Origin: Takakia lepidozioides
Lineage: Eukaryota; Plantae; Bryophyta
Length of the DNA: 64,000 bases
Assembly (NCBI GenBank): GCA_030704615.1
Contig: CM060733.1
Span: 7,936,001-8,000,000 of the forward strand
Reading direction: 5' to 3'
The position numbers and the translations under genes are program-made. The notes beneath the pieces were generated by a model that was given only the letters and a program-made list of their open reading frames with translations, was not told the DNA's origin and ran no database searches. Positions 4,421-63,868 of the stretch are shown here, in pieces; positions within the stretch are counted from its first letter, which is position 1, and each line of letters begins with the position of its first letter.

Positions 4421-5348
4421 GCCGATGGCAGTTCCTCAATGCTCGCCAGGCTGCCCCAACTTCAGCTAATCAAGAATGGCCGGGTTCACAAACAATATGG
4501 TGAAGTAGAGGCCCTGTGAGTAATGAGATTGGTCCTCAATTCACAAGCAGGAATTCTCAATTTCTTTCCTTCCCTACCTCTGTCCTTCCGATTAATTAGG
4601 CTGCCGATAGTTTGGCCAATCGCTTGACACAGCATGGAAAGAGCAACGACTACACCCCGCCCTTTGTCCCTCACGCTTAATCTTCAGTGTTGACCACTCA
4701 CTTTTCTCCCCTCCAAATACAATCTGAACTTGAAAAGGGGCATGAGATCGCCTCGTGTTGCTGCATGCAGTCGCAATGTATGTACGTTGCTGCCTCCAAC
4801 TCCCAGGGTAAAATATAGTAAGTACAATATTGGTGTACTTTGCAGACTAAATGTTTGTGGACAGACTCGGATGGAGTCCGCTGTTAGGAGGAGCTTGGTT
4901 TGTGGAGCCCTCTGTGCGGTCTCTTGATTCTCCCGACATCTCTGCACTTGCTTCAGCACCACACCGTCATGGTGCTACATGAGTTGGTTCGTGAGAGACA
5001 CGCACAATCAACTCAACGCGGCATTGTGGGAGCCAGAGCAGACCTGCTTACTGCAGCCGCTCAACATCAACGTCATCTCTTGAGAGACGTTCCGTAAATA
5101 ATACGCTTTTAGGTCACAAAAGAAAACGACTAAAAGTACCTGCAGGGTGGTAAAAGTACATGTAAAATAGAAATTTCTTATAATATCTCTAGGGACGCAC
5201 ACAAGTTTAGACAGCATGCACTGCATATATAAAAAGGGGCTCAGAACCGAGTATTCTTCTTCACTTGCTGCCGAGCTTTGCTGTTTCACGTCTTTATTCT
5301 TCACGTTGGGAGTGGAAGGGAGAGATTGTGCAGCTACGCACAGCGGCC

Positions 5349-6549
5349 ATGGACCCCTCTGTGTGGGGAAGATTGTCGGGAGACATGGTGGATGCTGTTA
5401 TTACTTCTTGCCAGTTTTCAGTTTACTTCGATTTCGCGTTGTTTGCAAACATTGGTGTTCTTTGATCGATTCTCCTTCATTCCGCAAGACCTCTGCAGAG
5501 ATCGAAGGAGCATCTCCTCTTATGCAATCATTTGTAGGTTTTCTTAAGCATGATTATACTAACGGAGATCATTCTGACGGAGGAGCAAGACGTGGAATTA
5601 ATGCACAATTATGGACGTACGATCTTGTAGCCCAGCGGTGGCAGGCAGGTACTAGGAGCCACCTCAAGAGTGGGTTTTCGCAACAGGGTTTTGGAGCAGG
5701 AGGCCTTTCATGTGCGCTGATTCCCCGTGATAATAAGGTTGGGATGGACATTGAGGTATTCAACCCACTGACAGGTAGCTCTAGAATACTGCCTCATACG
5801 CTCAATCGTTGGCATCTGATCCCAGTGAAGATGAGAGAACAAAGACGTACAAGATTATTATTGCGGGCAATCGTGAGTACTGGGGTGAAGACTAGAGATA
5901 CCAGATCACAGAGATCTACGATGCAGCATTGGGTTCGTGGAAACACGGTGGACGCTTCCTGCCTTGGTATCCATGTTATCACCGGTACATCCTTTGGAAT
6001 ACAATTGGTGTTGAGCACAAAGGGGTTTTGTACTTTGTAGTTCGTACGAAGTGTAGACTATTCCCGAGATTCCGGCTGATTGCGTACAACATTGAACAAG
6101 ATGTATGGAGCGAGATGCCACACATCCTTCCCACAGGAGCCTGCGAACGCGAGGAGTTTGCACTTGTTGAGTGTGAAGAACGGTTATTAGTCGCAGGAGC
6201 AGTTTGTGGGGATCAGTCCAACATCTCAGATTTCAACATCTTGGAGCTGAACACGTCAAGCAAAGAGTGGGTCCCTCTATTCAAAGTTCCACTTCCAATC
6301 GATTGGTATGAGTGGGATCAGAATCTAATTTACAGAGTGGTGTGGGGTAACCAATAGGTTATAAAAAGCATCCGACGCTGGCATGATGTTGCTGAAGGCG
6401 TATTGGTGTACGACATGCTTCAAAACACACTGCGATGTTGTAAATCATTTGAAAATTCGTATCCTCCTGTTGCAGTAGAGTTTTTATTTCGGCCGCCTTG
6501 TTGCGGACACAAGAGTTGTAGAATTATGCAAAGCATGGCGTATAGCTGA
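5349..6549 (+). pseudogene. F-box (kelch/FBA-type) protein pseudogene, intronless
   Basis: MDPSVWGRLSGDMVDAVI, then a frameshift to LPVFSLLRFRVVCKHWCSLI (F-box). Later VFNPLTGSSRILP, AYNIEQDVWSEM, LVECEERLLV and a C-terminal FLFRP. Frameshifts at ~5403 and ~5820 and an in-frame TAG at 6355-6357. Confidence 0.8.
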
Positions 6550-6867: not shown

Positions 6868-8720
6868 CACTCGGACTGTTCGCGGCCTTCCGTGGCTCCA
6901 ACCGCCACGACTCCTCACGGCTCGCCCTAGCCGCTCATTGGCCACAGTATGCCCCGTGATATCCCGTGGTACCACACCCACGAGCCGTCACGGCCCGCCA
7001 TCCCCACAATCTGGTCACCGTGCCCACCCGTGGTGTCCGCACCACGACTTCCCAAGGTCACGATCAATGGTCACGGTCAACGGTCACGACCTAGGCTCGT
7101 GGTATCTCGTGATACCGCCCCCACGGACCATCACGGGCCACTGTTCCTGCGTTCCTTGGAACTCCCCACGAGTTCCCATGCGTTTCCGGACGTTCCCACA
7201 CGTTCCCGAGCTCTCCCCGAGATGGTTGTTTTTATTTTTTATTTTTTTATAATCATTTCACTCTGTTCGTGGCCTTCCGTGGCTCCAACCGCCATGACTC
7301 CTCACGGCCCGCCCTAGGCGCTCGTTGGCCACGGGCTGCCCCGTGATACCCCATGGTACCATGCCCACGAGCCTTCACGGCCCGCCATCCCCACGATCTG
7401 GTCACCGTGCCAACCCGTAGTGTCCGCACCACGACTTCCCACGGTCACGGTCAATGGTCACGGTCAACGATTCACTGCGTTCCCAGGAACTCCACACGAG
7501 TTTCCGAGGCGTTCCCACGCGTTCCTGAGCTCTCCCCGAGCTGGGGTTTGCTCCTGCACCTGCTGCCGCTGAGCTATAGCTTCTGCGAAGCCACCAGACC
7601 TGCTGCCATGCTCTCTTGGGCTCTCACGACCCACCAAATGCACCCTAAACTCAACAAACAAGTAATATGCTGCCCAACAAGCTTTATTTCTTCATGAAGC
7701 TCACAAAAACGAATCTAAAAATACACACATTTACAAACTTGGTGCACCTGCACTTCTCATGCATATCCCCTGGCTCTAGGGCGCCTCGTTGCTGCCCTTC
7801 CAGCACTACTCTTGCCACTCCAAGAGCCCTTACACTGCTGAGTTTCAGATTGAAACTCCAACTCAACACATGTTTCACAAGTGCACTGATTTGCACACAA
7901 GAGGGCCAACCCCCTCTCTTCACTCATACCTCTTCATGAGCTTGGAGCTGAAGCTCCCAACAGGCTGCGATGCATCCCCTCGCAGCTCCACTATTCGGCT
8001 GCTCCTCATCTACCCACAACAACTAGTCTCGGACAAAAATACCTGGAGCTGATCATATCATCTCCAACCTGCAACACGCTAGCTTCCCATACGCAGCCCA
8101 CATTCCTGCAGCTCCTTAACTTGGCCTACAGCTGAAGAAGACGACCACCAGTTCGCCCACTCGTGGCCAGCATCTCCTCCGCTTCACACTAGAAGCCCAA
8201 ACTTGGTTGCCATAGCGTTGAGCTATACAACGCCACCATTCAATACAGGCTAACCGTCTCTCTATCCATTGCAAACCTGAAACCTGTTCGCCTTCGCACT
8301 CTATCTGCTTTGGATAGGCTCATGCACGGATCCCTGCATTCTCAGCTGAACCGCTTCTCATAAAAACACAAGTATTACAACTAACTCGAACTTGGCACTC
8401 ACAGACTCAAGCTGATCTTTATCAAATGATAAAAAAAGAATGATACAAGTACACAAGCTCTCTCAAACTCACATATTTGCACATGAAAATATCACCCATA
8501 TATTAAGTTGAGCCAAGTGCACCCCACGCCATGGGGAATCCACACTACGGCGCCATAGCTAGACGCAGTGAGGCTCAACTCAATAAAGATGAGCCCACCG
8601 CGATCTGCCGTGAAGATAACAACGCCAGGTGCCCAAACATATATTGGTCCCTGGATTGACGTTTGGATCAATCCCAAATATCAATATATCAAAACTAACT
8701 ATTTCCTAGCTAGTTTCACA
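6868..8720. mobile_element. Non-coding relic related to the 5' leader/LTR region of the 16.9-27.2 kb Gypsy element, with an internal tandem duplication (6868-7220 / 7259-7540)
   Basis: 7510-7880 aligns with 25380-25830 (e.g. GATTGAAACTCCAACTCAACACATG vs GATTGAAACCCCAACTCAAAACATG). 8590-8620 weakly resembles LTR sequence at 16990-17025. Confidence 0.55.
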
Positions 8721-9183
8721 CTAGTAGTAAAATAACTTGACAAGTTTCGTAAAATTGTTAGTTTCGCCAATTCCGTTTCGTTGTGGAAATTTCGCGAAAA
8801 TTTTGGAGAAATTCGGGGAATATGCCCTTGTGCTCATGTGAGCATGCTCATGCGCTACCTAACCTCCTGCCACTCACATTGCAAAACCTACCTGCACATC
8901 TAAACTAAGGCCTTATCATACGAGCGGCAGTGACCTCCAGTGACATGGAAGTCCTTGGCTAGGAATTGTAGCACATGTACGTAATGGCTGCTCGTATGCG
9001 AGAGCAAGTTGTCAAAGTCTTGAGACCATTATAATCATTTATTGAAACATACAAGCATGTTTGATGTTTTTCTTCTACAATGATATGTGTGTATCTATAA
9101 ACTGAGGCGTGGACTGTGTAACCCATTGACTGAATTGTATTTGGTTTGCGTTGGTGCAACGGGAGTTAGCATGCTTTTGACTC

Positions 9184-9534
9184 TTGCAAATTCCGCCAAA
9201 TTCAACGGAGCAACCTCTACAATGGTGGAGAGGGCACCAGCTACAATTTCCTACAATGGCATATTTGGCGAGACAAATTCTCGGGATCCCTGGCAGTCAT
9301 ATTGAAACTGAACGCATATTTTCAATTTGCTGGGATTCTTACAAGTCCTTGACGTTCAAAAATTTAGAGCAGCTCGTGATCCTCGTGAAAAACTGGCCAG
9401 ACGATCCTTGCGTGGGGCTTGAGGCCGCTATGCAATCCTCTTATGATTTTGGTGAAAAAGAAGCCAACATGGTGGATGATCTCGAAGAAGAATTTGAAGA
9501 AGAACCTGGTCGAGAGGTGTCCAGAAGACAATGA
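9184..9534 (+). mobile_element. hAT transposase C-terminal dimerisation-domain fragment
   Basis: PLQWWRGHQLQFPTMAYLARQILGIPGSHIETERIFS is the classic hATC motif, followed by an acidic tail. The rest of the transposase was not found. Confidence 0.85.
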
Positions 9535-10384: not shown

Positions 10385-11974
10385 TCCCTCTCTCTCCTCT
10401 CCCACACACCCGTGCAAATGTCATGCCAGAACTTGCCTTTGTCTCCTTGGTTGTTAACTCTCATGTGATTTCAGCAAACAACAACAAACAACGTCTTATG
10501 AGTACAATCTCATGTGATTTGTGCGGGCTTGCCTGTTGCAGATGGTGTGGGCAACAACCCTCAACAGAGTGCAAGTAAGCAAGTCAGTGAAGTCATCCAT
10601 CTGCCTTTCGTGGTTGGGTTGCATAACCTGTTGTTTTTTAGTTGTAATTGGTTGTTGAAAAACGGGTTAGACCTTCATCAAACCCTAGAGTACTTTTGGT
10701 AGAAGGTTAGCAATGTTAGAGGAGGTGGTAAGCCTAGTGTGTCTCACCATTGAGGGAGTAGATGGAGTCACATATTGCTAGCTCATTGGTTGCATTCTAA
10801 AGCATTCTAAATGTCACGTTGTGTCTGTAGGCAATGTGTTCCTGAAGCATGGATCAGAGTTGTGTCTTATCCCTCGAGACAGAGTGGGCGGTGCTCACTC
10901 CAAGTAAATATTAGATGAAATTTATGGTGGGGTGGGGGAATGTAGTGTCAACGTCCACCTCCTCTTTGGAAGATGGATTTTATTTTCAAATGTTTATGGT
11001 GTTGTTACCAGTCCACCTTGTTTCAAGCTACCTTTGCTTATGACCTGGAAGGTCATCAGTCAATCAGTATGCCCATGGGGGATAATGAGTTGTGTATAGA
11101 AGGTCATGTCTGTAACCTATCAGGGTAAAGAAATTGCTGGATGTGCACCCGATTGTATGTACCTGATTGTATGTACAGTATTCTTCCTTCCAAGATCCAA
11201 ACATTAACCTAGCAACAGCTGAGGATAAAAAATTGTCATCTTTCCAAGGGGGAGAGATGTGTTGTACTGCATCTCGAGTGATATTGGCTAAGGAACTGTG
11301 GTCGTGAGTCTGGCTGATTTCAATGGTTGAGTCTATGTTTATGTTAGAGCAAGCTCTCAAAAGAGTGCAAGAAGTGGGTACAGCCAATGGATTTCTTTGT
11401 TCTTAGTAACAATTGTGCAGATGTTGTACACTATGACCACAGTTCTAAATGTATGCATCAATGCCTGACACAATGTCTACATTCCAGTTGGAAGGAACAG
11501 ATCTTCAAAAGATTGTTTGGGACGAAGTTTGACCTGCCAACAGTAGCGGAAAGAGCTGACTACAATGTCATGCTGCAACCAGCTTACTTTCATATGCTGT
11601 CCATTATAAGAGTTGTTTGAAGTATTGAGGGAATTCCATGTACCACAAAACATATCTTGATTCTTAAGAGTCATACTGGTTGCAACTGAGAAGTTATAAG
11701 TACTGGATTCACTGGAGAAGAGGTACCACAGAAAAGTGATGTCTTACATGTCAATATCCACTGTTGACACTCACATAAAGCCGACAATCAAATTGCAAAT
11801 TTTCCAGCCATGTCAAAGACCAACCCTTGATGAAGAAAGTTGGAATAACTAAGGCCCCGGTTTGCCTTGCTCACAACAACAAGTTTTCTACAAGGACTAT
11901 AGCGAGATATGTACATTTCTGAACTTCTTGAAGAACAAAGTCTATAGACAGAGACCAAGCCTCGTTGGGACATG
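10385..11974 (+). repeat. Copy 2 of the direct duplication
   Basis: Colinear with 1-1498 apart from small indels. The left boundary cannot be fixed because copy 1 is cut by the window edge. Confidence 0.93.
10542..10907 (+). pseudogene. UFM1: UFM1 partial duplicate (exons 10542-10574, 10831-10907)
   Basis: Same two exons as 111-463 but encoding [36 protein letters not shown] (I>N, G>S, R>C at conserved sites). No upstream UFM1 exons recognised in 9.5-10.5 kb. Confidence 0.8.
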
Positions 11975-14310: not shown

Positions 14311-15036
14311 CATATTTTTTGATCCATGAAGAGATCAGCAATCACATTTCTGAAGAGCACCGGCACACAGTTTTTAGAGATTTGCAGTACTACTAGATTT
14401 CGAAACCCGAACGAAATGAATTGCTAGTACTCCTCCAAGTCCAGTGCTCTGCTTTTTAGGTCACTAATCTTAGCTCGTGTTGGCTTTGACCCAAGCCATC
14501 ATAACTAACAGCCTCTTCCCACTAATCCTGAACTGTAACTTCAAGTCCTTATTGCAGAAACTGCACATAGACCTCTCTATCAACGAAGATGTACAGCGAT
14601 TTGTTAACCATGAATATATACATGTCCTTCGGGAAATCATGTGCTTTTGGACCAATTGAATATCACTGGATTCGGCATGCATTGCTTGATTGCCCACACA
14701 CGACAACGCTGCTCGTGCTGCAGGTTTGCTTTCAATGTTGTCACTTCCACATCAATGGAGTCACATGCTGTCACTGGTGGGGTCATCGATTTGAAGTCTA
14801 TGGCCTTCTTCTATACGTTTCAGATTTCCGTTGTTGGCCGAAAATGTATAGACGTGTAAGGATTTGCATCGATGTGTGAGAGAATGTTAGACACAGGTCT
14901 GATCTGCAAACAGACTCCAAGCACACTCCCTAACGGGGAATTTGTATCTGTCTTTTAAAGTGTCTTTTCGTCTGCATCTGAATTGGTCCTAGAAAAACAA
15001 AACATGTCCGAAAAAGGAAGTGCCACAAAAGACAAA

Positions 15037-15109
15037 TGGAGATGCGGGGTATCGATCCCCGTACCTCTCGCATGCTAAGCGAGCGCTCTACCATCTGAGC
15101 TACATCCCC
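15037..15109 (-). tRNA. trnA-AGC: tRNA-Ala (anticodon AGC)
   Basis: The minus strand reads GGGGATGTAGCTCAGATGGTAGAGCGCTCGCTTAGCATGCGAGAGGTACGGGGATCGATACCCCGCATCTCCA: 73 nt, anticodon arm CTCGC-TTAGCAT-GCGAG, with T-rich sequence downstream. Confidence 0.97.
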
Positions 15110-16857
15110 ATACATATCATTCTGAGGAATTAATTGGCTATATAGTTTTTGTCCTACTGTCCCATTATCTTCGCTCTCCATTGACCCCACGCCCAGTTTG
15201 AGCAGAGACACAGAACAGCTCTGCGCACTCTGTTTCTTCTGCTCTCTAACGATGTCATCTTTTGGCACGAAAGCTTATGCAGAATCCAGACACAGTTCGA
15301 TCCTTAAAAATATGGGTGCCAAGGTGGTGAAGACATCCATGCTGGAAAGTTTCCAGCACATTCAAAAGGGTGGAAAACAGAGGTGCTGTCCAGGATATGG
15401 GACATGCATGTTGCTGGAGCATTGACTGCACCTACTGCCAGCAGCTGCACACATTTACAGCCTACGAGTAATATCTGGACGGATCACAGGGAGGAGCAAA
15501 TTGGTGATGAGTCAAATGAGAGTGCTTGTTCGTTGTGTTAGAGTGAGACACTGCGAGTAGATGCCTACTAGGATACAATCATGAGGGTTTTGCTGGATCC
15601 ATGTTTGCAAGGGCAGGTTATAGTGACACCAGAACTTGTGAAGAGAATGAGAACGGTAGCAAGAGTTATAGTGCCAAGAAACTGCCCTCTCATGCAGTTT
15701 GAGGGGACAGTGCCAGAATAAGGAGATGAATCTTGACATTGAAGACACTGATTTTGGTGTTTGTAGCCAGAAGTTGGGGGATGTATGGAGGGTTGCAGTT
15801 GGAATGATGCAGAAAAGGAAAAAAACCGATGGATCCACACCAATGAGATGGACCGATGGAATAAATACAGAGATATTGTAGGCATTGACTCCCCTATGAA
15901 TGTTGGCCATTCCGCACCCATGAGGATGTAGTGTCCACAAGGATTCTACTTCCGGAGCCGATTGTAGGATTTCACAGAGACAGACAGAATATGGCAAAGG
16001 TCACAGATAAATTAAGTAGTGTTCCATCTTGAGCTTTGCAGGTGGACGAGCAGGCATGTAGCAAGGCCAACAGGAACCTGTAAGGAGTAAGTATTGTGTG
16101 CAACAGGTTTGATGATAGCCGCTGCTGTCAAGAAGTTGGGAAACCGTTCAAAAGACTTCAACATCGTCAGCCTTCTTTACTGTCACCACTACTTCGAACC
16201 GGCGGGCTTCATAATCCCAGTGTTGGTATGGTGCCTATTGACATATGTCTCCTCACAGATGGCGGTCTTGATTCTATTCAAAACCAATTCTTTTTTTTGT
16301 TTTTTTTAAATGAACAAGTGACCGAGGCCCTGATAGTCGATATTTTATTGATAAGGAGGAAGCAAGGAAAAAATAACCTTGCAGCAGCGCCATAAGACCA
16401 ACAGATGAGGCACATGCTCATAAAACCGGAGTTCGAGGAAGGTCCTAACAGAAGGCTACATTGAGAAGTCAGGGGAGCTGACATTCAGCACAAACTGTCC
16501 TGCTAGAGTGAAGGAAAGCAGGGCTAGGGCGAACCAGGCTATCAGCCACCACCCACTGCCTTGCTAGTTTCAAAGGAAAGATGAATTTTGGAACGGGCCT
16601 TTCTAAAGCTGCGCTTGTGGCGCCAGTTAACCCCCGTCAGTGGGAGATCGCTTAACACTGCGTGAACTCCCAGCACGCAGTAAGGGAGTGGTTCCAGTCA
16701 ACTCGCAATTGGGCAAAGGTGCAGAAGACACCTCCATTTCCCCATTTTCTTAAAAAATGGGACCCCCCGCTGGCAGCTCTAGCGGTTTGGCTTGTTTTCT
16801 AATTTTTTCTTAAGAAAATCGGGATCGCCCCAATTAATCCAAAAAAAAAATGGACCG

Positions 16858-17260
16858 CTCTATCACGTTATATAAGTCAAGCCAATGGCACCTTTGCTAA
16901 AGGATTCCACCATACAGACCTCACCCACTCTCCATCTCAAGTACTAGAGATATGGCGGCGAAAGAGGCCTCGGGATGCTCGACTAAAAGAAGACGAGCCT
17001 GCCTACGTCTCACGTGGAGATAACCTCCCCACGTCCTAAGTGAGGTTCGTCATCTCACTTGGCACATGGAACCAAATGAAATCCCAATGCCAACAAAATA
17101 CAAATATAAATGTGTAATGTCTTAATTAGCTAGAAATAACTATTTCTAACTAATCACAAACAAAACCATGACAACTGTCGTACACCTAAGCATCGTGCCA
17201 CAACATACATCGTTGTCCAACCACACTTCCTAGCATATAGTCCTAGAAAGCCACGCCACA
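16858..17260 (-). repeat. 3' LTR (lacks ~33 bp at its outer end); PPT adjacent at 17261-17270
   Basis: On the minus strand AGGGGGCGAT precedes TGTGGCGTGG... 16858-17172 matches 26237-26546 at about 95% (about 14 substitutions, mostly transitions, and one 5-bp indel, counted by eye). Confidence 0.85.
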
Positions 17261-17509
17261 ATCGCCCCCTAGCTGGTGATTAGCTAATACCGGATAGCTT
17301 GCAAGTAACCATCCCAATAAGATCATCGTTTGGTCTTCAATCGCACAAGTCCCACACTGAAGTGAGGCCGGGTGCAAACGTAGCCCCATCGTTAGTCGCC
17401 TTCATGCAATCCATGATCTTCAGTTGAGTATCCATGGCATTGAAGCCCCATTAGCTAGACCTTGGATCACTTGTCCGCCTCATCGTTGTCATGCTCACTA
17501 CCTCTGTCC

Positions 17510-17660
17510 AAGGCATCGTGGACACAACCGTTCTCCGATAGGAACCTCCTCAAGTGGCGGTATCAAGCATCCCATGTGTCACCTCCTTGAGCATTGTCAC
17601 ACCACATGGTTGGTTGCGCGCCCACCAGCATGCCCACATAGCATGCAACGCAACCCTGCA
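17510..17660 (-). pseudogene. PHD finger at the end of the Gypsy pol
   Basis: CMLCGHAGG...CSRR*HMGCLIPPLEEVPIGERLCPRC fits C4HC3 with the typical HxxCLxPPLxxVPxGxWxCPxC tail. Confidence 0.85.
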
Positions 17661-17699: not shown

Positions 17700-18990
17700 T
17701 GTGGAAGGTGACATGGCGCACAATTGCGCACATGGTCCTTCCATACCATGCCATCTCGACCCTCCATAATCAACACTCCTGAAGGCAACACCTCTCTGAC
17801 CCTTAGAATCACACGTCTAGCTGTGACATCCAAGGTCGTAAGCGTTGTATGCTACAGATACACATAGTCCCCAGGGTGGAAACGCCGAACACTTGGCCGA
17901 TATCCCCATCCACGTATAGTGGCGTACCTCAATGTGTCTCGTGTGGGCAATAGCAAAGTTCTCAAAAAGCCATAGGCATGACTCTCTTGAACAACTCTAC
18001 CCGCTGGGCACATGCTTGTGTCCACACATCCGGATCATCAAGGTTGAGAACTATTGCAGCCTCCCTGCGAATAGATGCAGGCAAATCCGACTCTCGGCCA
18101 AAGAGAAGAAAGTAAGGTGAGAATGAGGCAAGTGAAGCTTGTTTGCTGAACCTATAGCCCATAGCTAGCCAAAGTATTCTCCTAGGTGTCCCTTCTGCAA
18201 ACCGTACTTGCGCAAACCTCTCTTGACTGTCTGAACAACTCTCTCCGCCAAAGCCATCAGCCTCGGATGATCCGAGAAGTAGTGCGGTGATCTATCAAGG
18301 CTTGCTCATACAAAGCCTGAAACTCCCCAAGAACTCTCCTCCCCTGGTCCGTGAGCCTCGGCTGGAGCACCAAAATGGCTAAGCACTCGATCTAAGAATG
18401 CATACGCAGCCCCTCACTTGCCTGTCAGGCAATGCCACCAGTTCAATCCATTTGGAGAAATGTTCCACCATCACCAGCACATACTGGTTATGGCGAATCG
18501 TCAATGGCAATGGGCCTGCGAAGTCAAGACTCCAACGATAGCCCAAACCCATAATGAATAAATGATGCAATTGTGGAGTAGGGGCGTTGAAAAGAGCCCG
18601 TACTCTATCACACACCATGCACTTTGCCACTAACTGTTGCACATCCGTGTGCATGCCCGTCACCAATACTGCCCTTGCAGCAAACTATGAGTGCGCCGCA
18701 CCCCAAAATATCCAATTCCTCATGGGCATGGCGTACTAATCGCGCCTCGTTGTGTTGGATGAGGCATTATCCTCACTCGTCATCCTCCCATACCCGGAGT
18801 AGATGAGTCCCCTCCCACTGAACCTCTTGCTTCGTTGTAGGACCCGATCTCTCTCCTTAACAGTCACACTGGCTGCTGTCTCTCCGGTACGAAGGTATGC
18901 CTACACTGCTGCATCTTCATGCACATCCTTAGCACCACCAAACTCCTCACTAGTCTATGGATCGTCATGTACGCTATCTACATGACCAAT
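17700..18990 (-). pseudogene. Gypsy integrase (HHCC zinc finger, DDE core, C-terminal module)
   Basis: HEELG...CMVC; RWSLDFAGPLP...VLVMVEHFSKWIE; FSPYFLLFGRE; FHPGDYVYL. Confidence 0.9.
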
Positions 18991-19269
18991 CGCATGGGAT
19001 GGACGCGCTTGAGCTCCCATTGTTAGAAGGCACAAAAGACCAATGCATGTCATCCTGGCACCATCTCCTCATCTGTCTCATCATGCCACCGAGCTCCAGT
19101 ATCATCATGCTCACTCGTGCATGGATTACGACTCAATCCATCTGCATCCCGATTGACAATACCGGCTCGATGCACCACTTGGAAGTCGTACTCTTGAACA
19201 TAATGCCTACGCGTGCAAGCTTCCCTGTAAGCTTGTCTACTCCATCAACCACTTCAATGGTTGGTGATC

Positions 19270-19930
19270 CGTGACAAGGGTGAAGAGATTGTCATAGAAG
19301 TAGCATATGAAATGTGCCACTGCCCATACCGTAGCTAGACACTCCCCTTCATAGGAACTATACTTCATTGCTCGGTTTGTCATGTTCGAGCGCTAGCAAA
19401 TGCCACTACGAACTTCCTCCCTCATCATCCACCTGTGTGAGCACTGCTCCAATCCCCAACATACTCCATCCGTATGTAGCTGGAAAGACCGCCCCCGAAT
19501 AGGCCGCCGCAGAATAGGTGCAGAAGTCAATCGAGCCTTGAGTTTCTCAAATGCTTCCTCCTGCTCCTCCTCCCATTGCCATTCCTGACCCACCTTGGTC
19601 AACTTTGTAAGAGCATTTGCAATGCTGCTAAATCCCTTGACAAACCGTCGATAGTAGTTTGTCAATCCCATGAAAGCACGAACTCTGCTCACATCCATGG
19701 GGCGTGGAATGCATGCAATGGCCTCCACTTTGTCTGTTGAACATCCAATCCTCCAGGTATATCATGTGGCCCAGATACTCCATCTGATTGTGGAAGAAAA
19801 TTGCACTTTCAGGGGTGCAGTTTCAACCTGTGCGCTCTCAAGTGCTCAACACCACCTGAAGGTGTCTCTCATGCTCCTCAACCGTAGCACTAAAGACAAT
19901 GATGTCATCAATATAGCACCGGACGAAGTC
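19270..19930 (-). pseudogene. RT C-terminal half and RNase H; RT N-terminal half deleted
   Basis: LDFVRCYIDDIIVFS; VRAFMGLTNYYRRFVKGFS; WEEEQEEAFEKLKARLTSAPIL; FQLHTD; YSSYEGECLATVWAV. Confidence 0.9.
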
Positions 19931-20850
19931 TAGCCCCGCACTTGGCGGCGTGATGCCTCTGACAGAGCTGACACATCTGTAGTGCCGGTGGCAAATCCCA
20001 TTGCCCGCTCTCGCTCATCCGCATTGGGCTCCACCAATTGCTGTAGCACACTATCACAAACAAATCACCCAGGACCATTGTCTTGGAAAGCATGAGACGA
20101 GTGAAAGCTCATGAGCATAGGCAAGGCCGCACGTGGCTGGCCCACTCGATTGACCACTGCTAGAGGTGGACGATCATCATGTCGCACTCTCTGTGGTTGT
20201 CTCCCTTAGTCCAAAATGCCTTACAACCGTGAAATTGGTGGCCGTTGAATGGAATCGTATGCTCTCTTGAGAGCTCTGGTGGTGCAAGATTGGTCACCAC
20301 AATCGAGTCGACGCACCGCGGATCCCACCACTGCCTGCATCCAATAGCACCGGCGATCCAATCCAAGACCGTACCTGATGCACACTGGCCATTACCCTGG
20401 CCCGATAATCCCCATAAGAGGAACATTCTCCAAGATATAGCCTAGAGGTTGCACTTGCCTTGTCTGCAAGTCCCGCAACACTCGCAACAATCTCCAAAAC
20501 AAATGCGATCGTGCATCATACAAGCCATTCCCATGACCTGCAGGAGAGTGTCCTTGGCAAGGCCATCCGACTATCACCAAGTCAATGGAACCATGCCGCT
20601 CCAAATCATCCACCCCCAGCAGGTAATGTCTGCTGGCAGGGCCTTTTGATACCCTTGAACTGCTGAGAGAAGCAACAACTCAGGATACCGGTGTATGAGC
20701 AAGACAATGTGGCGCATGGAAATACGCCGAGCAATCTCATCCTTATCCCATACAAGTACTTGCGTACTTTAATCCCTGCTTGCAACACTCCTGCAAGCCC
20801 AATGCTCATGCCTCCAAACAAGTCTAGCAACAAATCCCTGAGTCAGGTGG
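19930..20850 (-). pseudogene. C5-cytosine DNA methyltransferase domain, DNMT3-like, inside the retrotransposon polyprotein
   Basis: Motif I LLDLFGGMSIG (20833). Motif IV IDLVIVGWPCQGHS (PCQ at ~20554-20562). Motif VI YILENVP. PVLLDA...RL(W)..TNL. C-terminal EPNADERERAMGFATGTTDVSALSEASRRQVRG, which parallels DNMT3 [28 protein letters not shown]. Confidence 0.9.
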
Positions 20851-21290: not shown

Positions 21291-21623
21291 TTATAACACC
21301 GCCCCACCAACAAGCACATCGTAAGACATCGCATCCGTAACAATGGCTTTAGCTCTCATGACTGAGCTGTCCGTAGGATGATCCGGCTGCAATCGAATGA
21401 AGAGCTCATGACGTGTAATCCCTCGTGCCTTCTCTGAACCGCCCAAAGATGTTTGAATTTGGAATGGGTAAGGCTCCAAATCCGTCTTTGAAAGGCCCAA
21501 GCCTGCAATTGCTGCTCTTCCCAACATCAATGGCTGTGCTCCCGAGTCCAACAAGACCCGTAGTGGCCTATACCTCCTCCCGACTGGGCCACCCAACTGA
21601 AACACACCATTCTGATTGTCCAC
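21291..21623 (-). pseudogene. Retrotransposon aspartic protease
   Basis: LRVLLDSGAQPLMLG ... YDVLVG. Confidence 0.85.
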
Positions 21624-22571
21624 CAGGACTACCCAGAGTCACCATACTACGCCAATGGCTGGTCTAGCTGACAACTCCTGCAACCTTGCAGCTGCCGCTT
21701 GCCATGGTGCAGCTGCGGCTGTCTTCACCCTTGAGTCCATGACATCCATTCATTGCACATTATCCGCTATCCCCGCAGATAGTGCCAATGCATCACCACT
21801 CTCACAAAGTCTAGCTGCTAGTCTGAACACAACAGCTGGCCGAATCCCTGGCATTGCAATGGTCATCGCAGACAACAATGGAGCTTGGCAAACCGCCGTA
21901 GCCGCCCCCAACAATGTACTGGCTGCACCCTGCTTTGCAGCACCACCCACTAGCATTTCCCGAGCCACACCAACTCTCCCCACTGATACTCGTGGCTCTA
22001 CCTCTGACACACTTGGGTGAGCGGGTACCATCGATGGCGTAGTTGGCATTGTCTCAGCCAATGTGAAAGACTATGGAAGCCTTGTCTGTCAACTTGCTTC
22101 CCCTCTTTGTGGATCAAAATCCACATCTGCTCCTCTTGGCTCAGGAGCACGCGTTGCTGCTCGAGTGACAGCAGCTGCAGAGTCCACATGCAGTGGTCCA
22201 GCAAGTGCGGCTCCACACATGAAGCCCATACCAATCTGGTCTTCCCTAGGCATAGGAGGTTGTGCAGGTGGGGCTGCCTCAGGCCTGAACTCGGCCTTGG
22301 AGCTGACCCCATATTAGTAGTGGCCACGGCAGCAAGACGTTGCTCTAGTTGGGCAAGCCTATCCACCATGTCTTGGTCATGACCTTGACCTTGACCGTTT
22401 TCTTTGGTTTTGGTTACGACCTCCACCACGATCTCTGCCTCCTCTACCTCTCTAGACTACATTGCCTCGTCCTCGGTCACCATTGTTCCCTTGGAACTGG
22501 CTTGGTCGTAGCTCAGGATGCAAGTCATAACAATGGGCCTCTTCATGCCCATATTTGCCACAATGCCCACA

Positions 22572-23700
22572 CTATAGTTGTGTAGGCTGTGCCTGTGCCG
22601 ACCCTTTGCCTCTCTCCGGGCAATCTCTCTTAACATGGGGTCCTCCACAATCCCAACATATCACACTCGACTGTTGTTGGCCTGAGAATGAAGGAAGTGA
22701 CCTCTGCATTTGAGATCCTCTCTGTCCTTCCCCGGGCTTCGCCTGAGCCCCCTTGTTGCCTTGAGCACGTTGGGGTAGTGGTTGTTGTTGGCTAGGAGCC
22801 CCACTTCGTTGTGTCTCCTTACCAAACCCCACCATGACCGCTCGCTCCTCCACTATATTGAGCTCTATCCGCTCTGCCAGCAAAAACACGTTTGCTAAGG
22901 TGGGTTGGTCTACTTGTAGGAGAGTTGCATCCCGCACCTTTCTCCTTAGGTCTTTGTCCAATATCCCATACCAGAATTGGACTGCTTGAGCTTCCGTAAC
23001 CCCTTAGGTTACATTTATCAATCGCCTCATGCGCGTGTAAGCTTATCTCAAACTCTTAGTAGGCTTGCGCTGGAACTCTTGCAAGCTCCGCAATTTCTCC
23101 GTCCTTATTCCCTGGTAGTTTTTCCTCAACTCTTCGAAGAACTCCACAACTGGGTTAAAGGCAGGCACGGGTGCTGGTGCTGCAGCAGGAGCTTGAGTGG
23201 ATTTCCCAGCTCCATCTTTACTTGTCCCACTACTAGTGCTTGCAGTTGGGGATGTTGGTGTAGCTGCTGGTATTGCCGCTGCCTTTGTGCCTCTAGTGAT
23301 GGAGACATAATCAGGTGACCAATATTGTCGTCACTCCTCAATCTCCACCTCATTTCCCCGCCTAAATTCATGGTAGTCATCCATAAGCGGCCCCTCAAGG
23401 TGCTGAAACAGCCCCTATCACATCAACTATCAAACTCCTGTATGAAATCATCAAGCTCGATGGTGCCCACAGCTCCCGAGTACCGACGTGGCCCCTTGGG
23501 AGCTCCATACATTTCCTCCATCGTATCCCACAACAATGGCACGGAAATGGCTTGCACCCTCGGCGAGAATCCTCTTAACTTTGAGTCTGAACCTTCCTCA
23601 AAAGACATTGAAGATGAGGGTGGCCTAAACCGCACACCTCGTCTTGTATACCCACTAGTATCACTGGTGCTCGTGCCGGCACTCTCCTTAGCAACTGATG
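22572..23700 (-). pseudogene. gag region with CCHC zinc knuckle
   Basis: CWDCGGPHVKRDCP; upstream PRRYSG...LDDFIQEFD; fragmented by stops and frameshifts. Confidence 0.8.
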
Positions 23701-24499: not shown

Positions 24500-24905
24500 C
24501 TCCAATCAGCCCCCACAATGGCTCCACAAGCCTGCCCAATATGGCCTCCAAGAGTCCTCCAAACAGCCCTTAAGAAGCTCCTCAAATCTGCCAAGTATTT
24601 GGCCTCCAAGGACCTCCAACAGCCCTCCAAAGAACTCTTAGAAAACTCCATAAGCCTGCCCAATATGGGCCTCCAAAGACCTCCAATCGTCCTCCAACCA
24701 GCCCTCACAAGGCTCCACAGGCCTGCCAAACATTGGCCTCAAAGGACCCCAAATAGTCCTTCAAACAACCCCAAGCAGGCTCTACAAGCCTGCAAGATAT
24801 TGGCTTTAATAGACCCCAAATAGTCCTCAAAGCAGGCCCCAATACCTGCAAGATATTGGCCTCAATAGACCCCAAATAGTCCTCAAACAAGCCCCTTTGA
24901 AGGCT
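24500..24905. repeat. Degenerate ~55-70 bp tandem repeats in the Gypsy 5' leader
   Basis: Recurring GCCTGC(C/A)AA..TGGCCTC(C)AA..GACC(C/T)CAA..GTCCT units. Confidence 0.75.
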
Positions 24906-24929
24906 CCAAAAATATCCACAGTCAGTTGA

Positions 24930-25350
24930 TTTTTCATCCGTCACTACCAAATTTCATCCAAAACCGCAATTTTTCATCCGCAGGTCCGATATCTCATCCG
25001 TCGGTGCGATATCTCATCCACTGGCGCGATATTTCATCCACAGGCGCGATTTCATCCGCTGGCGCAGTTTCATCCGTTGCCGCGATTTTTCATCCGATAG
25101 CGCAATAGTTCATCCGCTGCAACAATTTCATCCGCTGATGCAGTTTCATCCGTCGCCGCGATGTTTCATCCGATAGCGCGATAGTTCATCCGCTGACGCA
25201 GCTTCATCCGTCGCCGCGATGTTTCATCTGATAGCGTGATAATTCATCGGCTGACGAGATTTCATCCGCTGGCGCAGTTTCATCCACTGTAACCGATTCT
25301 CATCCAAGAGCGCCAATTTTCATCCACTGGCTCAATAGTTCATCCGATTG
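24930..25350. repeat. Minisatellite, ~22 units of 18-21 bp with core TTCATCC(G/A)
   Basis: The core recurs every ~20 bp with CG-rich variable flanks (e.g. TTTCATCCGCTGGCGCAG). Confidence 0.92.
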
Positions 25351-26204
25351 GACTGGTGGTGCTCCCAACTCTGGGATAATGTTCCCACGCGTTCCCACAA
25401 GTTCCCAAGCGTTCTCACAAGTTCCCTCGAGTTCCCAATGAGTTCACACGCGTTCCCAAGCTAGGGTTTGCGCCGATTTGCCTCTGCGATTACTGCAACG
25501 AGCTATGGCTTCTATGGAGCAACCAGAGGTAATGTTTTTGGTTTCTTGAGCATCAATAGACCACCAAGAGTGCCTCTAACTCCCTGAGCAAGCTATTTGC
25601 CACACAACAAGCTCTCTTTCTCTATAAAACTTATTGAAACAAGCATAAAACAAGCTATTGAGCGTTCTATGGCATACCCTCTTCTAGCCATCGCATGCAC
25701 TCATAGTGTTTCTTTCTATGGCCATAGTGCACCTCTTAGAGCTCCTAATCCAGCCCTGCACTTGCCACTTCCATAGACATGCTCTTCCCAAGCTTGGGAT
25801 TGAAACCCCAACTCAAAACATGCTCTACAAATACACTATTCTGCCCCAAAGAGAAATCAGATGTCTACCTCCAGTCATAGCTCTCCTAAGCTTGAAGTTG
25901 AAGACTCCCACAAGCTGAAACCATGCTCCACACATGCACCGCTTGCTCCCTTAACACCCGAGCTCTTCTTGAACTCATCAAACCCTACAACACTTGCAGA
26001 ACAAGAGCTTCTTCACAAGCTCTCAAATTTTTCAATGGGGCTCTCCTTGAAGACCTCCTCTTGTACATAACACCACAAGGCTTTCTTCTTGCAAACCTTG
26101 CAACACCTTATATCTTAAGAGCTATCTATCAAGCTCTCTTCCACACACAAGTGCTAACTATGCTAACACATTGCACTCATAGATGTAAGCAGGTCTTCTT
26201 CTAG

Positions 26205-27125
26205 TGATACGGAAATGGTGAAAAGAGGAGAAACCACTCTATCACGTTATATAAGTGAAGCCAATGGCATCTTTGCTAAAGGACTCCACCATACAGACCT
26301 CACCCACTCTCCATCTCAAGTACTAGAGCTATGGCGGCGAGAGAGGCCTTGGGAGGCTCGACTAGAAGAAGACGAGCCTGCCTACGTCTCACATGGAGAT
26401 AACCTCCCTACGTCCCAAGTGAGGTTCGTCACCTCACTTGGCACATGGAACCAAATCCCAATGCCAACAAAATACAAATATAAATATATAATGTCTTAAT
26501 TAGCTAGAAATAACTATTTCTAACTAATCACAAACAAAACCATGACGATATCAATACACCCTGATATACCCGTCGGGTTATCAGGGTAATCAATATACCC
26601 GCCCAACACTAATATATTTCCTAGTTGTACAAAATGATGTGACGTGACACTTGCACATCAGCGTCACGTCTAAAGTCACGTCGCCTCAAAAACTAACTTT
26701 ATATTGTGTATTTGTTTTAATTTTTCGTTTTTATATTGCATAGTTTATCATTATAATACGTAAGTCGCCATGTCATATCTAACGATCCCAAATGTTTCTA
26801 AAAAAATTAATAAATCGAGATTGCTAATTTTTGTGGTCCCGAAATTCCTAAGAAAATAGTTAATAAATCAAGACCGCCAATGCTAACGGTCCCGGATTTT
26901 CAAAACAAAAATAATAAATCGTGACCGACAGCTCTAGGAGTCCCTATCTGTGAAAAAAAATAATAATAAATCGGGACAGCTAGCTCCGGCGATCGCGATT
27001 TGTAAGAGATTGTTTAATAAATTCCGGGCCGCCACCTCGATTTTTTTTCAATAAAATTGGGACCGTAAACATTGGCGTTGTCCAACTACACTTCCTAGCA
27101 TATAGTCCTAGAAAGTCACGCCACA
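26205..27125 (-). repeat. 5' LTR, interrupted: 26205-26546 and 27076-27125, separated by ~530 bp of unrelated AT-rich sequence
   Basis: On the + strand it begins TGATACGG and ends GCCACA (TG...CA). Both pieces match the 3' LTR. No canonical TGG-type PBS recognised. Confidence 0.75.
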
Positions 27126-27189
27126 ATAGATACGGAAATGGTGAAAAGAGGAGAAACCACGTGTCGCACGATGCTTAGGTGCACGACAA

Positions 27190-28302
27190 TATATATATAC
27201 CCTGGTGTGGCAAATTTAGGTACTTTGATGTATACCCTTATATTAGGGTATATTTTTATAATATACTCTTATCCTTCTATTTATCCTACATCAAGAAGTC
27301 CAATATACCCTTTTTTGGGAAGGGTATATGTTAAAATGAAGGGTATATCTAATCAGGGTATATAAGATAACATAGCCACAGCGGTAGCATTCAACGATGG
27401 TAGCATAGCAACAACGGTAGCATTCGAGATGACATTTAGCGTGGAGGTATTTTTTAGAGAATCTCACCCATCTAGCAAAATCTAGTAGTTCTTTTTCTAG
27501 GCAGAATAAGAGAGGGATTTTTTTTGGGACATAAGACTAGTGCCATACGACCTTTATGTGCTGTCTTCTCTCTTTTTGTTGTGTTGTTAGGGAGCCTTCA
27601 GTTGTAAGAAACCTCCAATCACAGCTGAAAAAAATGCTACATATCTATAATTCCTAAAATGCCATATAACCCAAAGAAAACCTCTTCAGATCCTACATAT
27701 ATTTTTTGAATCTCAAGCCTCTTTCCTCTTGCATTGGGAATTAAAGCCAAAATAATATGCAATATCTCATCAATTTTCTCTTTTACCATAGATTGTTTTT
27801 TTTGTTGTGTTATTATTATTATTTTTCCAACTGGGGGATTGTATCCCTGTTTAGCTTTATTATAAAATATTTGTTTGGCAAAAAAACCACCTTACAAGTT
27901 ATTCCTGTTCATTCGGGGGAAAAAATTAAAACCCCTTTTATGTCATGAGGCACACACACACACCGTATTCAGTGAATAAAGATCTTGGCCCCTCGAGGAG
28001 GGTGTTGTGTATTGGAAAACATCACAGTTTTTAAAAAATCATTAAATTATATATTGATTTTAATTATCCATACCCAGAAGCATATATATCTTTACGGGGG
28101 GTTATACCGGTATAGAATTTGAAAAGTTAATTTACCCATACCCGGAGGGTAAATAAATTTTTGAGATTTCAACTCCATACCCTGAGGGTAAATGATTTGA
28201 CAAAAGAAAATTACTTATACCCTAAGGGTATATTGAAATCAATATACCCGCCCAACACTGGTTTGTTACCCGGCCAGGCCCTATATACCAGTCCAACACT
28301 GG
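27190..28302. mobile_element. AT-rich non-autonomous DNA transposon remnant (hAT-like end)
   Basis: Many ATACCC/GGGTAT subterminal motifs. ATACCCGCCCAACACT (reverse complement of a CAGTGTT-type end) at ~28244 and also at ~26595. Confidence 0.45.
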
Positions 28303-38838: not shown

Positions 38839-41800
38839 ATGTTTTCAAACATGTTGCCATTGTCGCCAGACTGCGCCCCTCCACTGAACACTCTATCTCC
38901 AGTCATTTTCCTCTGTGATGCGTGTGAGACGGCGAGAGCGGTGGTGATGTGCATCAACGAGGGGCGTCGGTTTTGCAAGAAATGCAACATGCGTCTCCAT
39001 CCGGCTCAGTCCAACCATCAGGTTGAACCCCTAAGGGCGTCTCTCCTCGTCAAACCCTAAGCTTGTTGGAAAATTAAACTTTCCTAATTGAGATAGATTA
39101 CAGTGAATTTGTAATTCAGAGAAATCCACAACAAGGTAAAATCTCTCATGTTTATGGTTAGGATTAGGAGTCACTGCTGCAATTCCCCAGGTTTGAAATA
39201 CTCATGTGTGTGAAATAAATTTCTTGTTTTGGGTCGTTGGCAGTCCACAAGGATGACAACCATGTTGACAACCATCAATAATGACAGCCATATTTCGTAT
39301 TGAAGGATGTTCATCTCAGAGAATTTGAAGTCAAAGTTACAGTATATGTTTCTTAATTTCAAGTTCAATTTTCTAGACAACCGAAGGTTTATGATTATTG
39401 ATGTGCCGTATTTGTGCCAGGTAACAGCGTATGTGACAATTGCCGAATGCATGAAATGCCATAGTTTGGAGGCAAATTATCAATGCTACGACTGTGCAGA
39501 AAATGGGGAGGCACAATATTTCTGCCAGCTATGTGCAGCCAGTGATGCAAGAAACAATCACAGAGTGGATCCCATCCCTTTAGAATATTTTAAGGATCCA
39601 AGGTGTAAGGAAATTGCACAACACAACATGGCCAAGAGCAAAATGCCAATGGTTCAGGCAGTCAAGACAGATCCGACTGGAGACTCTTGGACCTTCACGA
39701 CTGGATTTCTGCAGAATGCACCACCAAGTGTTGGAAACCCAATTGCAGGGAAAATGGAAGGTGGAATTACAAGTACAGATCATCTTTTGGGGTTTGCTGT
39801 TGTAAATCTTAAGAAATATGCAAGTGCACAACAGGGGTTTGTTAAGCTGGAACCACTCAGGGACAAGCCTAATGAGGGAGGCAAGAATACTGCTAAAAAT
39901 TTGAGTCAAGTGGGTGAGGAGAGCAGCACCATGCCCCATCAAAGTCAGAAGAGGCCAATTAAAGACAAGGAGAATGTGCTCAACCATGCTAATATTCGAG
40001 CAAAAAAACAAAAGGTCTGTAATGGATTTATCATCACACCTTTTATGAGGTTTCTTTCTTTGTGTCTTGTAAGAGTATTGGTGACAGTGAAGCTTCCTCT
40101 GCCCTGGAGCAGGGAATGTGACCAATACCAAAAAGTCATCTTTCCCTCCTTCCTCAGTTCTCCCTTCCATTATTTGTTCCAATCTGTTTCTGAATCGTTG
40201 ATGCGCAGATCTCCCCAAATTGCGTTATGTATACCAGCAACAAGGACTTGAAGAAACAGGCACAAGCTCGGAAGGATGAAACAAAGCCTGGGAATCTGGG
40301 AGGTTGCAAATCGAAAACTGGCACCCAGCAGGCAGGGAGCCTTGGTGTGATTTCATTCAACCGTGACTCTATCTTGATCTCTTTGAGCATTTTTGCAAAT
40401 TGTTTTCCTCTACCAGTTGGAAAAGGGTGATTGAAGTTTTTAAAGTAGCTGTGGATTATGCCTCGTCCTGACCGTGTGACTTTTGCAGATGAGAGTGATG
40501 AGGAGGATGGTGTGCACCACATTAAGCGTGGCTCAGTGTCTTTGGAAGCATTTGTGGTGACTTGTGGCGATCAGGATGATGCTGCCGATATCACAGGTAT
40601 GTCAAAGGAATCACAATCAGGAAAAATACAGAGGCCTACAAATGCATTTTGCATCCATGCCCTTTGCATGATGTACCTTCAGGAAATACCACAGGCAACA
40701 AAGCGTGGCAGCAAGTGAGGAGAGCCACGCAGGGTAACTGCTGTACTGCTTCAATGATTTCCCAAAAATGTTGCTGGGGCCCCTTTCAATTCCCCTGCAA
40801 CTACTATAATGGCACATACCCACAGCCAAACATTTTTGTGAATCTTCAGCCATAATTGAAGATTGCCGTGTTTGAACTGTTCAGGAAAAAGTGGAGAGGA
40901 AGTGAAGGTTGGAGCAGGCATCAAGAACAGGATCCGCAAAATGCTGGAGCTGGGCCTACATCCTGATACACCTGATATTGAAGCCCAACAAGCCTTAAAA
41001 AATGCCCAGCGCCTGCTTACAAAGTATAACCTTGAGCAGGTATGTGCCTGCTGATGCATCACTTAGGGAGCAGGATGCAGGAAAAGAGAGGAACTTTAGA
41101 AAGGCCATGGAACACCCAAGAACGGATCAAGTGAAATGACAAGAAAAAAACATCTGAAGACCAAGGAAGAAAGAAACTATGTAACGCCCAGGGGAAGCCT
41201 AAAGATCTTCTGGGACAACAGTGTAATGAAGAAACAAGAAGAAATGAAATGAAATGAAATGGTACTTTATAACATCCGCGGAAAGCTCAAAGAGCTTATG
41301 GTTATAAAATGTAAAATAACAAGAGAGGAGACAAAGAAAGAAAGAAACTTATAAACGTCCAAAGGACCCAGGGCCCATGTTAATTAGTAGACCATCAAGA
41401 AACCAATCCAGAAAAAACCCATAAATCACTTTCCAAATGTTTGTAAATATCCGAGTCACAAAATGACCCAAAACATTGCTTGGAGATGGATTGTCAATGT
41501 AAGTCGCTGATCAGCACTTATGGTGGCAGAGAAATATACTTTCTAAATCACAGGCTCACAGTATCTTTGCTCCTACAGGGACAGGTTAGGTAGAATGAGA
41601 GGCTGGGATTCAATGAAGAATACTGGCTTAAGACAAGGAACTAGCATAATTGTTGCAGGCAGAGGTCATGAAAGGATCGTTGAAAGACACAAGTGGACTA
41701 AGAGGAGGCATGCGCGTGGTAGAGCTTCGTTGCAAAGGCAAGATTAAACATAGTCGCTTGGAGGCGTGGGTAAAGCAGTTGGGCTGGGTGATTGCCGACA

Positions 41801-63105: not shown

Positions 63106-63868
63106 GGCAGACTGCTCAGCTGCTCCTCACCTTGATGCACTTCACAACCCTACACAGTCATGTAAGCAAGCTCCCTGATCACGGAGGGGTGACCTTTGTG
63201 ATGGTCCATATTCTACCTTTCTGCGATTCTCCCTGAGATTCTCCCTGCAATCCAGCGAGAGTAATTTACGATTGCGAAGCAGGGAGCAGGTGGGTGGGAG
63301 GGGCACATCCTCAAATGTATGAAATGTGAAGGCCGCGGTCCATATTGTCTGCATCAAAAGCACAACACTGCTAGCAGCGGAAGAGGAGTCTGCTGCACCT
63401 GTTTCCCCACCTCAAAACTACATAAAAAGTCTAGGTGATAGTCACCCATATTACTCAGAAGAATCCCTACATTACCTACTTATGCAAAGGCAGGCACAAA
63501 CAACCAACTACAGGCTGCCTGCTGAAGTGCAGGGAGAGGGACTGAAAGACAGAGGGCAGCACCAACTTATGGAGCAAAGAAAGAACGTAAGAGAAAATGT
63601 TTAGGGACGGCATCAGTTCGTGGCTAACAAGATACCCCCATCCACCCCTCTAGGGCAAAGCACCAACCTTACCAGCTGATCAAAACCGTCGCCAAAACCT
63701 GGAACAGCGTACGTTGCTGCAGACACGCTGAGCATGCATCCAGCACCTGCTCATCAACGGACCTCCAGTTTTTTATTCATCACAATTCCACACTATCCAT
63801 CTCGGCTGTTCTTATCTAGAAATTCTACTTATTACAGAGGGTTCCAGACTCATCACTAGCTATTTGAA

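Follow-up and report, generated by a model that had tools for sequence, protein, structure and literature searches.

A decayed DNMT3-like cytosine methyltransferase in a Gypsy-type retrotransposon of Takakia lepidozioides, and a conserved stop codon behind the enzyme in related elements

The window analyzed here is a stretch of 64,000 nucleotides from Takakia lepidozioides (contig CM060733.1, positions 7,936,001 to 8,000,000), and all positions below are counted within it. A decayed retrotransposon lies on its minus strand, with protease (PR), reverse transcriptase (RT), RNase H (RH) and DDE integrase (IN) in the order of the Ty3/Gypsy type. Tandem repeat arrays with periods of 67, about 20/76, and 10 occupy the 5' untranslated region (24553..25458). 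They are followed by a gag capsid-like region (22977..23144; Retrotrans_gag, weak, E 0.0095), two gag CCHC zinc-knuckle motifs (22545..22658; CWDCGGPH at 22635-22658 and CGHCGKYGH at 22545-22571), and an aspartic protease (21423..21569; Asp_protease_2, weak, E 0.014) whose LLDSGA motif is found at 21537-21554. The RT is represented by a C-terminal remnant (19760..19933; RVT_1, E 1.1e-5) with the YIDD motif in LDFVRCYIDDI at 19901-19933. Then come the RT connection and RNase H (19222..19731; RT_RNaseH_2, E 1.9e-15), a decayed integrase (17753..18657; rve, E 0.009) that shares 181 of 259 codons with the integrase of the intact relative L033, and the remnant of a PHD finger at the integrase C-terminus (17513..17650), recognized by its motif and by comparison with relatives. 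In L033 the same region matches PF00628 (PHD finger) with E 2.6e-10.

Several other features are present in the window. Two further repeats, at 94-1397 and 10525-11907, are 89-96% alike and lie about 10.4 kb from each other; between them are part of an F-box gene (5171-6354) and a hAT dimerisation fragment (9181-9531). The stretch 7799-7967 resembles the 5' region of the retrotransposon (68%). A tRNA-Ala(AGC) gene is located at 15036-15110 on the minus strand. The ranges 41650-42847 and 51516-52932 contain DUF7168 fragments, together with a minus-strand ORF resembling a kinase (51516-52055) and an unassigned ORF beside it. An intronless ORF of 590 codons (47837-49606), with no Pfam match, may resemble the plant At1g76660-like family. 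Long inverted repeats (54502-56257) surround a copia-type Pol fragment (55141-55512; Pol_BBD, E 6e-21), and the exons of a YqeH-like GTPase gene (58348-63126, minus strand) contain an RNase H fragment (60287-60604). The Pfam matches of 21 ORFs in the window are not lineage-specific.

Between the protease and the RT, on the same strand, lies a decayed C5 cytosine methyltransferase domain (DNMT; 19933-20842). The first-pass annotation had proposed such an enzyme at this place, DNMT3-like and unpermuted, in a dead Gypsy copy, and its reading of the domain was borne out. All the motifs that it named were recovered by motif search on the minus strand in the canonical order: LLDLFGG (20810-20830), GWPCQG (20551-20568), ENVP (20419-20430), WIGSPVLLDA (20336-20365), TNLAPP (20277-20294), EPNADERERAMGF (19993-20031), and RRQVRG (19933-19950). 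Motifs I, IV (PC), VI (ENV) and VIII (RxW) and an ERERAMG tail can be seen, with the catalytic residues kept. Motif X was deleted from the window copy, whereas relatives show LGQAMD or LGQAID. A single frame matches PF00145 with E 5e-9 and 36.5 bits, against a cut-off of 22 bits. When frameshifts were allowed for, 193 of 295 codons were identical to the Marchantia protein Mp4g09160 (P0022), or about 65%; the alignment score was 875, compared to 37-41 for three shuffles. The two are collinear and no introns were found in the window DNMT. Three stops (20223, 20208, 20067) and five single-base frameshifts (near 20749, 20624, 20415, 20296, and 20273) interrupt the domain, which agrees with the earlier view that this copy is dead.

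Two structural features of the copy went beyond the first-pass annotation. The first is an internal deletion of about 960 nt at about 19938 (junction 19930..19940, minus strand), recognized by comparison with the relatives L023, L024 and L006 and from the junction sequences. These relatives have 960-970 extra bases at the point where the window DNMT tail meets LDFVRCYIDD (L023 11096 to 12057, L024 6639 to 7600, L006 2385 to 3355). The lost stretch held DNMT motif X, the linker, which contains a stop in relatives, and the N-terminal part of the RT; RVT_1 in the window covers profile positions 149-205 only. The DNMT tail adjoins YIDD in the window only because these bases were deleted.

The second feature is the arrangement of the ends. 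In four complete relatives (L014, L021, L024, L025), the terminal repeats are split and follow the layout A1-ORFs-B1-A2-B2, with A of about 330-345 bases and B of about 115 bases. A starts with TGTCATG. B is preceded by a purine run and has CA as its last two bases, and the B1/A2 junction reads CA-nn-TG. Clean 4-bp target duplications (CATA, AAGG, AATC) flank three of the four; the 5' end of L014 is damaged. The same parts are present in the window in rearranged form. Repeat A1 (26206..26546, minus strand) begins [T>C]GTCATG, with ATAT before it at 26548-26551. A polypurine-tract-like run, CCAGCTAGGGGGCG (17263..17276, minus strand), with similar runs in the four complete relatives, stands directly before B1 (17176..17262, minus strand), which ends ...CGACA and is followed by GT and then by the TG of A2. 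Repeat A2 (16854..17173, minus strand) is truncated at its 3' end and is identical to A1 in 299 of 319 columns. Its missing end and the start of B2 form a displaced piece (27076..27160, minus strand), and the end of B2 (...CGACA) lies at 27161-27188 in the opposite orientation, on the plus strand, followed by ATAT; the stretch 27161..27192 is likely the true 3' end of the element with its target duplication. The family shows TG...CA ends and short duplications; the ATAT found at both ends in the window is of low complexity. In contigs of the sequencing runs X1/X2 this A/B junction is also seen, with 17261 linked to 26202/26205. The DNA between the rearranged ends (26547..27075) is single-copy flank; the contigs covering 26581-27108 show 0 other letters, at a depth of 38-50. 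The ends of this copy would be explained most simply if, after insertion, the element was inverted along with 530 flanking bases and a second, small inversion took place as well.

Two full direct LTRs were not found in the window or in the four complete relatives. An interpretation of the 319-bp pair as ordinary LTRs plus an insertion was ruled out by the A-ORFs-B-A-B layout of the relatives. As a mark of a tRNA primer-binding site, a TGG start was looked for by eye directly after A1 and was not seen in these five elements. In the four complete relatives, split direct repeats occur together with a DDE integrase, TG...CA ends, 4-bp duplications and an internal CA-nn-TG. The split repeats with 4-bp duplications suggest that this DDE integrase inserts the element in an unusual way; speculatively, circular cDNA opened at the internal CA-nn-TG might yield split repeats with DDE-type ends.

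The affinity of the enzyme was examined with sequence profiles and with a predicted structure. A profile that included the window fragments matched DNMT3A with E 3e-13 over positions 8-235, the whole length, while the DRM match (3e-7) covered positions 8-129, the first half only, and HhaI gave 3e-7. The intact L033 domain gave the same order of matches. Its AlphaFold model has a pLDDT of 95, and all 31 Foldseek matches listed for this model are DNMT3A, DNMT3B or DNMT3C, with a top TMq of 0.72 at 21% identity. Among the matches listed, the closest solved structures are DNMT3 enzymes and not DRM, DNMT1/2 or bacterial methyltransferases; phage methyltransferases are 23-26% identical in the 8 matches listed for them. 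The catalytic Cys (C97), the Glu of ENV (E140) and the Arg of RxW (R182) are invariant in 49 aligned rows. Motif order, profile and fold agree in supporting the description of the enzyme as an unpermuted, DNMT3-like methyltransferase, a class assignment that rests on best hits and predicted fold. DUF3444, which marks the host DNMT3 of plants (PMC6453930), was not matched in the L033 or L035 ORFs, nor were PWWP or ADD domains in the element DNMT.

Related copies are numerous. Four sequencing runs (X1-X3 from one sample, which may be the source of the window, and one plant metagenome) were mapped to the element at a likeness of at least 80%, and 30,763, 9,948, 14,018 and 863 contigs were placed on it. 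The DNMT bins were covered like the rest of the element, and the flanks were single-copy. The summed contig depth of the DNMT bins in X1 was 56,000-182,000, compared to about 50-59 on unique flank contigs; this excess shows a high-copy family, the depth itself not being a copy number. Among the metagenome contigs, 42 of 117 pattern matches were confirmed as loci of relatives, and many of these loci are collinear with the window through gag, PR, DNMT, RT/RH and IN (blastn). A protein search with the DNMT of L033 returned 62 matches. Those with names include Mp4g09160, Mp8g17980, Mp6g11220 and several MARPO models of Marchantia polymorpha, and a single protein of Sphagnum fallax (BDL97_09G086500). 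A search of cluster representatives with the DNMT of protein P0005 returned 899 clusters at E <=0.001, a number that may include distant methyltransferases. In viral contigs only distant methyltransferases were seen, with 80 of 478 matches kept at 25-52% identity over part of the domain in one search and 1 of 46 in the other. No sequence named Klebsormidium occurred among the protein matches, one of the searches being limited to 3108-5000 aa.

According to the position of the enzyme, 214 proteins could be divided into four groups. DNMT stood alone in 58, followed the protease without an RT in 28, preceded RT or RNase H in one ORF in 17 (5 of them Marchantia or Sphagnum models), and followed RT/RNase H or directly preceded the integrase in 111. 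The Marchantia proteins P0022, P0023, P0027, P0034, P0036 and others are element-type PR-DNMT frames; one Marchantia PR-DNMT model is labelled DNA (cytosine-5) methyltransferase, and several end about 80 residues past the domain. A DNMT tree of 60 rows, chosen from the proteins and loci and built by a quick method with a midpoint root, placed the window in a clade of 15 rows (SH-aLRT 100) with Marchantia, Sphagnum fallax, L001-type loci and P0021. This clade is nested in one of 29 rows (97), and the forms with DNMT between RNase H and integrase are on the other side of the tree (99). An RT-RNase H tree of 32 rows, from which the window copy was left out, gave the same main splits. The large sister group (P0005, P0041, P0048-P0220) has DNMT between RNase H and integrase; the domain either moved within pol or was captured twice. 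Many of its proteins have W-E-C-Q instead of W-P-C-Q with the Cys kept, so the proteins scored without the PC pattern, mostly of this variant, do not amount to a count of dead enzymes. P0217-P0219 of Cymbomonas tetramitiformis, which have the RH-DNMT-IN form, lack the motif IV pattern.

Selection on the domain was estimated from dN/dS, as the first-pass annotation had suggested. The dN/dS of DNMT was 0.105-0.136 for three open-frame pairs, and that of RT and integrase in the three open-frame loci was 0.03-0.08; the RT row for L006/L033 was dropped because only 37 codons aligned. For the window DNMT against L006 and L002 the ratio was 0.13-0.14, a rough value like all between-family ratios here, as dS is near saturation. 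The linker is weakly constrained (0.46-0.54). Among decayed copies of one family the ratio was 0.35-0.83, as expected after insertion. The CpG observed/expected ratio was 0.53 in the element and 0.55 and 0.42 in the flanks, and no CpG or CHG depletion beyond that of the flanks was found as a footprint of self-methylation. It is almost certain that DNMT is a family trait; the domain is under purifying selection, and the DNMT and RT trees are congruent.

The relatives have a stop codon between DNMT and RT. L033 has a gag-PR-DNMT frame of 1369 residues, one TAG, and then an RT-RH-IN-PHD frame of 1047 residues in the same phase, and L035 and L031 have the same junction. The stop is followed by CAG TTA in L033, CAA TCA in L035 and CAG TTA in L031, so that TAG-CAR-YYA is found in all three open-frame loci. 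Although dS between L033 and L035 is 1.3, the only differences between their stop contexts are at the R and Y positions. The closer family, the one nearer to the window copy, consists here of decayed loci, and 24 of the 25 that extend to the RT start have TAR YAA CYC ATG at the same place (17 TAG and 7 TAA; L002 and L004 are duplicates, and L042 is without a stop). Both groups together give a conserved stop in 27 of 28 such loci. Other stops in the closer-family loci are scattered, unlike this one. In both families the two ORFs share their frame with the stop, and the linkers, of 307, 412 and 424 nt, differ by whole codons. Of the 28 PR-DNMT proteins, 22 end 75-170 residues past the domain, many of them at the residue that matches the L033/L031 stop, and 6 end within 18 residues. 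The stop is not universal, since 12 further proteins have DNMT and RT in one ORF, and five Marchantia or Sphagnum gene models continue into RT, RNase H or integrase. The junction of the window copy itself is deleted, and a stop would be attributed to its family from the nearest relatives in the tree. The earlier view is thereby revised. A test for one continuous PR-DNMT-RT frame had been suggested, and the relatives have a conserved in-frame stop after DNMT instead; in them the enzyme is the C-terminal part of a gag-protease ORF and not part of an RT-level Pol.

The context of this stop resembles that of known readthrough signals. Stops of the CAR-YYA type occur in other plant retroelements, SIRE1 and RIRE2. 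In tobamoviruses, UAG-CAR-YYA is the readthrough consensus of TMV, with about 10% readthrough in vivo, and a spacer and stem 3' of the stop is a known stimulator (available text of PMC2754532 and PMC3159437). The exact motif is found in L031, L033 and L035, together with a spacer and a predicted stem. For both groups a stem spanning about 90-100 nt is predicted, beginning 9-11 nt past the stop, and its support is modest. Pairing is found in 94.8% of stem cells in the larger group, compared to 38-60% when the stem is slid; covariation is weak (5 pairs, a level reached by 48 of 500 shuffles), and of 5 single folds, 2 do not outperform shuffles. Differences from the tobamoviruses are that the closer family has CAA-CCC, without the final A of CAR-YYA and with an in-frame ATG after it, and that the element stop would act after gag, protease and DNMT rather than after gag. 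Readthrough of the DNMT/RT stop is likely and would put DNMT at Gag levels.

The reading preferred here, to which a probability of about 0.6 is given, is that a Ty3/Gypsy-type family has its DNMT3-like enzyme at the end of a Gag-PR-DNMT product bounded by a leaky stop, packages it, and methylates its new cDNA. Most ribosomes would stop at TAG and yield abundant Gag-PR-DNMT, and a minority (about 10% in TMV) would read through to the rarer RT-RNase H-integrase-PHD. Placement before a leaky stop would give DNMT a near-Gag copy number in the particle, where cDNA is made. The enzyme would enter the particle with Gag, the protease may cut it free, and it would methylate new cDNA, either to let it pass as host-like chromatin or to limit the activity of the element itself. 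A wider form of this proposal, in which an old and large clade of the green lineage loads particles with DNMT at Gag number through the leaky stop, methylates its cDNA ahead of insertion, and uses its DDE integrase at a CA-nn-TG inside split repeats, is tentative and clearly less probable than its core.

The stop may also be bypassed differently. With the same element and enzyme, RT-RH-IN could be produced by splicing of the stop linker or by re-initiation at the ATG 6 nt past the stop, and this is considered unlikely though worth weighing. The sequence TAG CAA CCC ATG G of the closer family would suit re-initiation. Splicing is favoured by the weak constraint on the linker and by the Marchantia model P0026, which skips the linker so that the RT start directly follows the end of motif X, if that model is right; a precedent exists in Ogre elements, in which a stop-containing PR-RT spacer is removed by splicing. 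Nevertheless, splicing would not need a stop in frame with both ORFs, nor linkers differing by whole codons. Re-initiation is at odds with the first Met of L033 ORF2, which is at residue 117 and well inside the ORF, and with the variable Met position among loci (117 in L033, 14 in L035, 5 in L031), while CAR-YYA is kept despite a dS of 1.3.

The role of the enzyme is likewise subject to alternatives. DNMT may be a family trait that leaves the cDNA in particles unmarked and works instead on chromatin, during or after integration at a site picked by the PHD finger, or serves as a non-catalytic DNA-binding module; this is somewhat less probable again than the splicing or re-initiation routes. It agrees with the PHD finger at the integrase end in relatives, with the lack of extra CpG loss in the element, with the Cymbomonas proteins whose DNMT lies between RNase H and integrase without the motif IV pattern, and with the inactivity in yeast of the Klebsormidium domain, KnitGypsy-Dnmt3, a result called inconclusive by its authors (PMC5890265, available text). 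However, the catalytic residues do not vary across the 49 aligned rows and are kept in the window copy, and placement in the Gag ORF points to the particle. A single insertion of a host DNMT3 gene fragment into this copy is very improbable. A source would be at hand, since host DNMT3 genes are present in non-flowering streptophytes, bryophytes among them (PMC6453930, available text), but the shared architecture refutes it: dozens of relatives found in other hosts carry the domain at this very place, the stretch with DNMT is covered by many different contigs of the same organism, introns and DUF3444 are absent, and the DNMT tree agrees with the RT tree. The first-pass annotation had likewise assigned the methyltransferase to the element family, and packaging of the enzyme with Gag is the reading retained here.

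The question of why a retrotransposon carries the class of enzyme that silences it has been open since 2018, in part because the known hosts, Symbiodinium and Klebsormidium, are hard to work with. Now that the element is seen in Marchantia polymorpha, where gag-PR-DNMT frames are open, the question can be tested in a genetic model that has methylation mutants. The conserved stop predicts far more methyltransferase than RT. Also, some annotated bryophyte 'DNA methyltransferase' genes are element ORFs, which is a caution for annotation. If the proposal is true, bryophyte genomes, that of Marchantia included, would receive DNMT3-type methylation from an unrecognised source, the particle-loaded DNMT, and the clade would persist in liverworts and peat mosses.

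Several known systems can be compared. Host DNMT3 of animals and non-flowering streptophytes (PMC6453930, available text) shares the motif order, and the best sequence and fold matches of the element enzyme are DNMT3A/B; the element DNMT is only 21-23% identical to human DNMT3A/B and lies inside a mobile element. Other C5 methyltransferases borne by retrotransposons are SymbioDIRS-Dnmt3 and SymbioLINE-Dnmt of Symbiodinium, the former methylating CG de novo in yeast (PMC5890265), and the EpiLTRs of Cymbomonas and Euglena (10.64898/2026.05.21.726589), as described in the available text of these sources. The Symbiodinium elements belong to the tyrosine recombinase or LINE classes, unlike the element here, and the EpiLTRs carry, at the end of pol, a DNMT4-sister domain together with DAM and a chromodomain, none of which is found here. 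In the literature searched, which took in 10.1101/363937, PMC11982613, PMC10952607, PMC9516144, PMC13468544 and PMC3441728 and left subscription papers mostly outside, no land-plant report of such elements or of the stop was found; PMC12344493 and the preprint 10.64898/2026.05.21.726589 mention such elements, in their available text, just as from 'streptophytes'.

The nearest known counterpart is KnitGypsy-Dnmt3 of Klebsormidium nitens (de Mendoza et al. 2018, PMC5890265), compared here by description from the available text. It has DIRS-like repeats and carries DNMT in one ORF with RT and RNase H. Both it and the present family have an unpermuted Dnmt3-type DNMT in a Gypsy coding region without introns, A-coding-B-A-B repeats with Gypsy domains, and purifying selection on the DNMT (Ka/Ks under 0.2 in Klebsormidium). 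The kinship in design that the first-pass annotation had pointed to is supported. The relatives found here live in land plants (Marchantia, Sphagnum fallax), and the nearest of them have a stop between DNMT and RT, in contrast to the uninterrupted frame of the algal element. The family resembles KnitGypsy-Dnmt3 save for one described feature, the single ORF.
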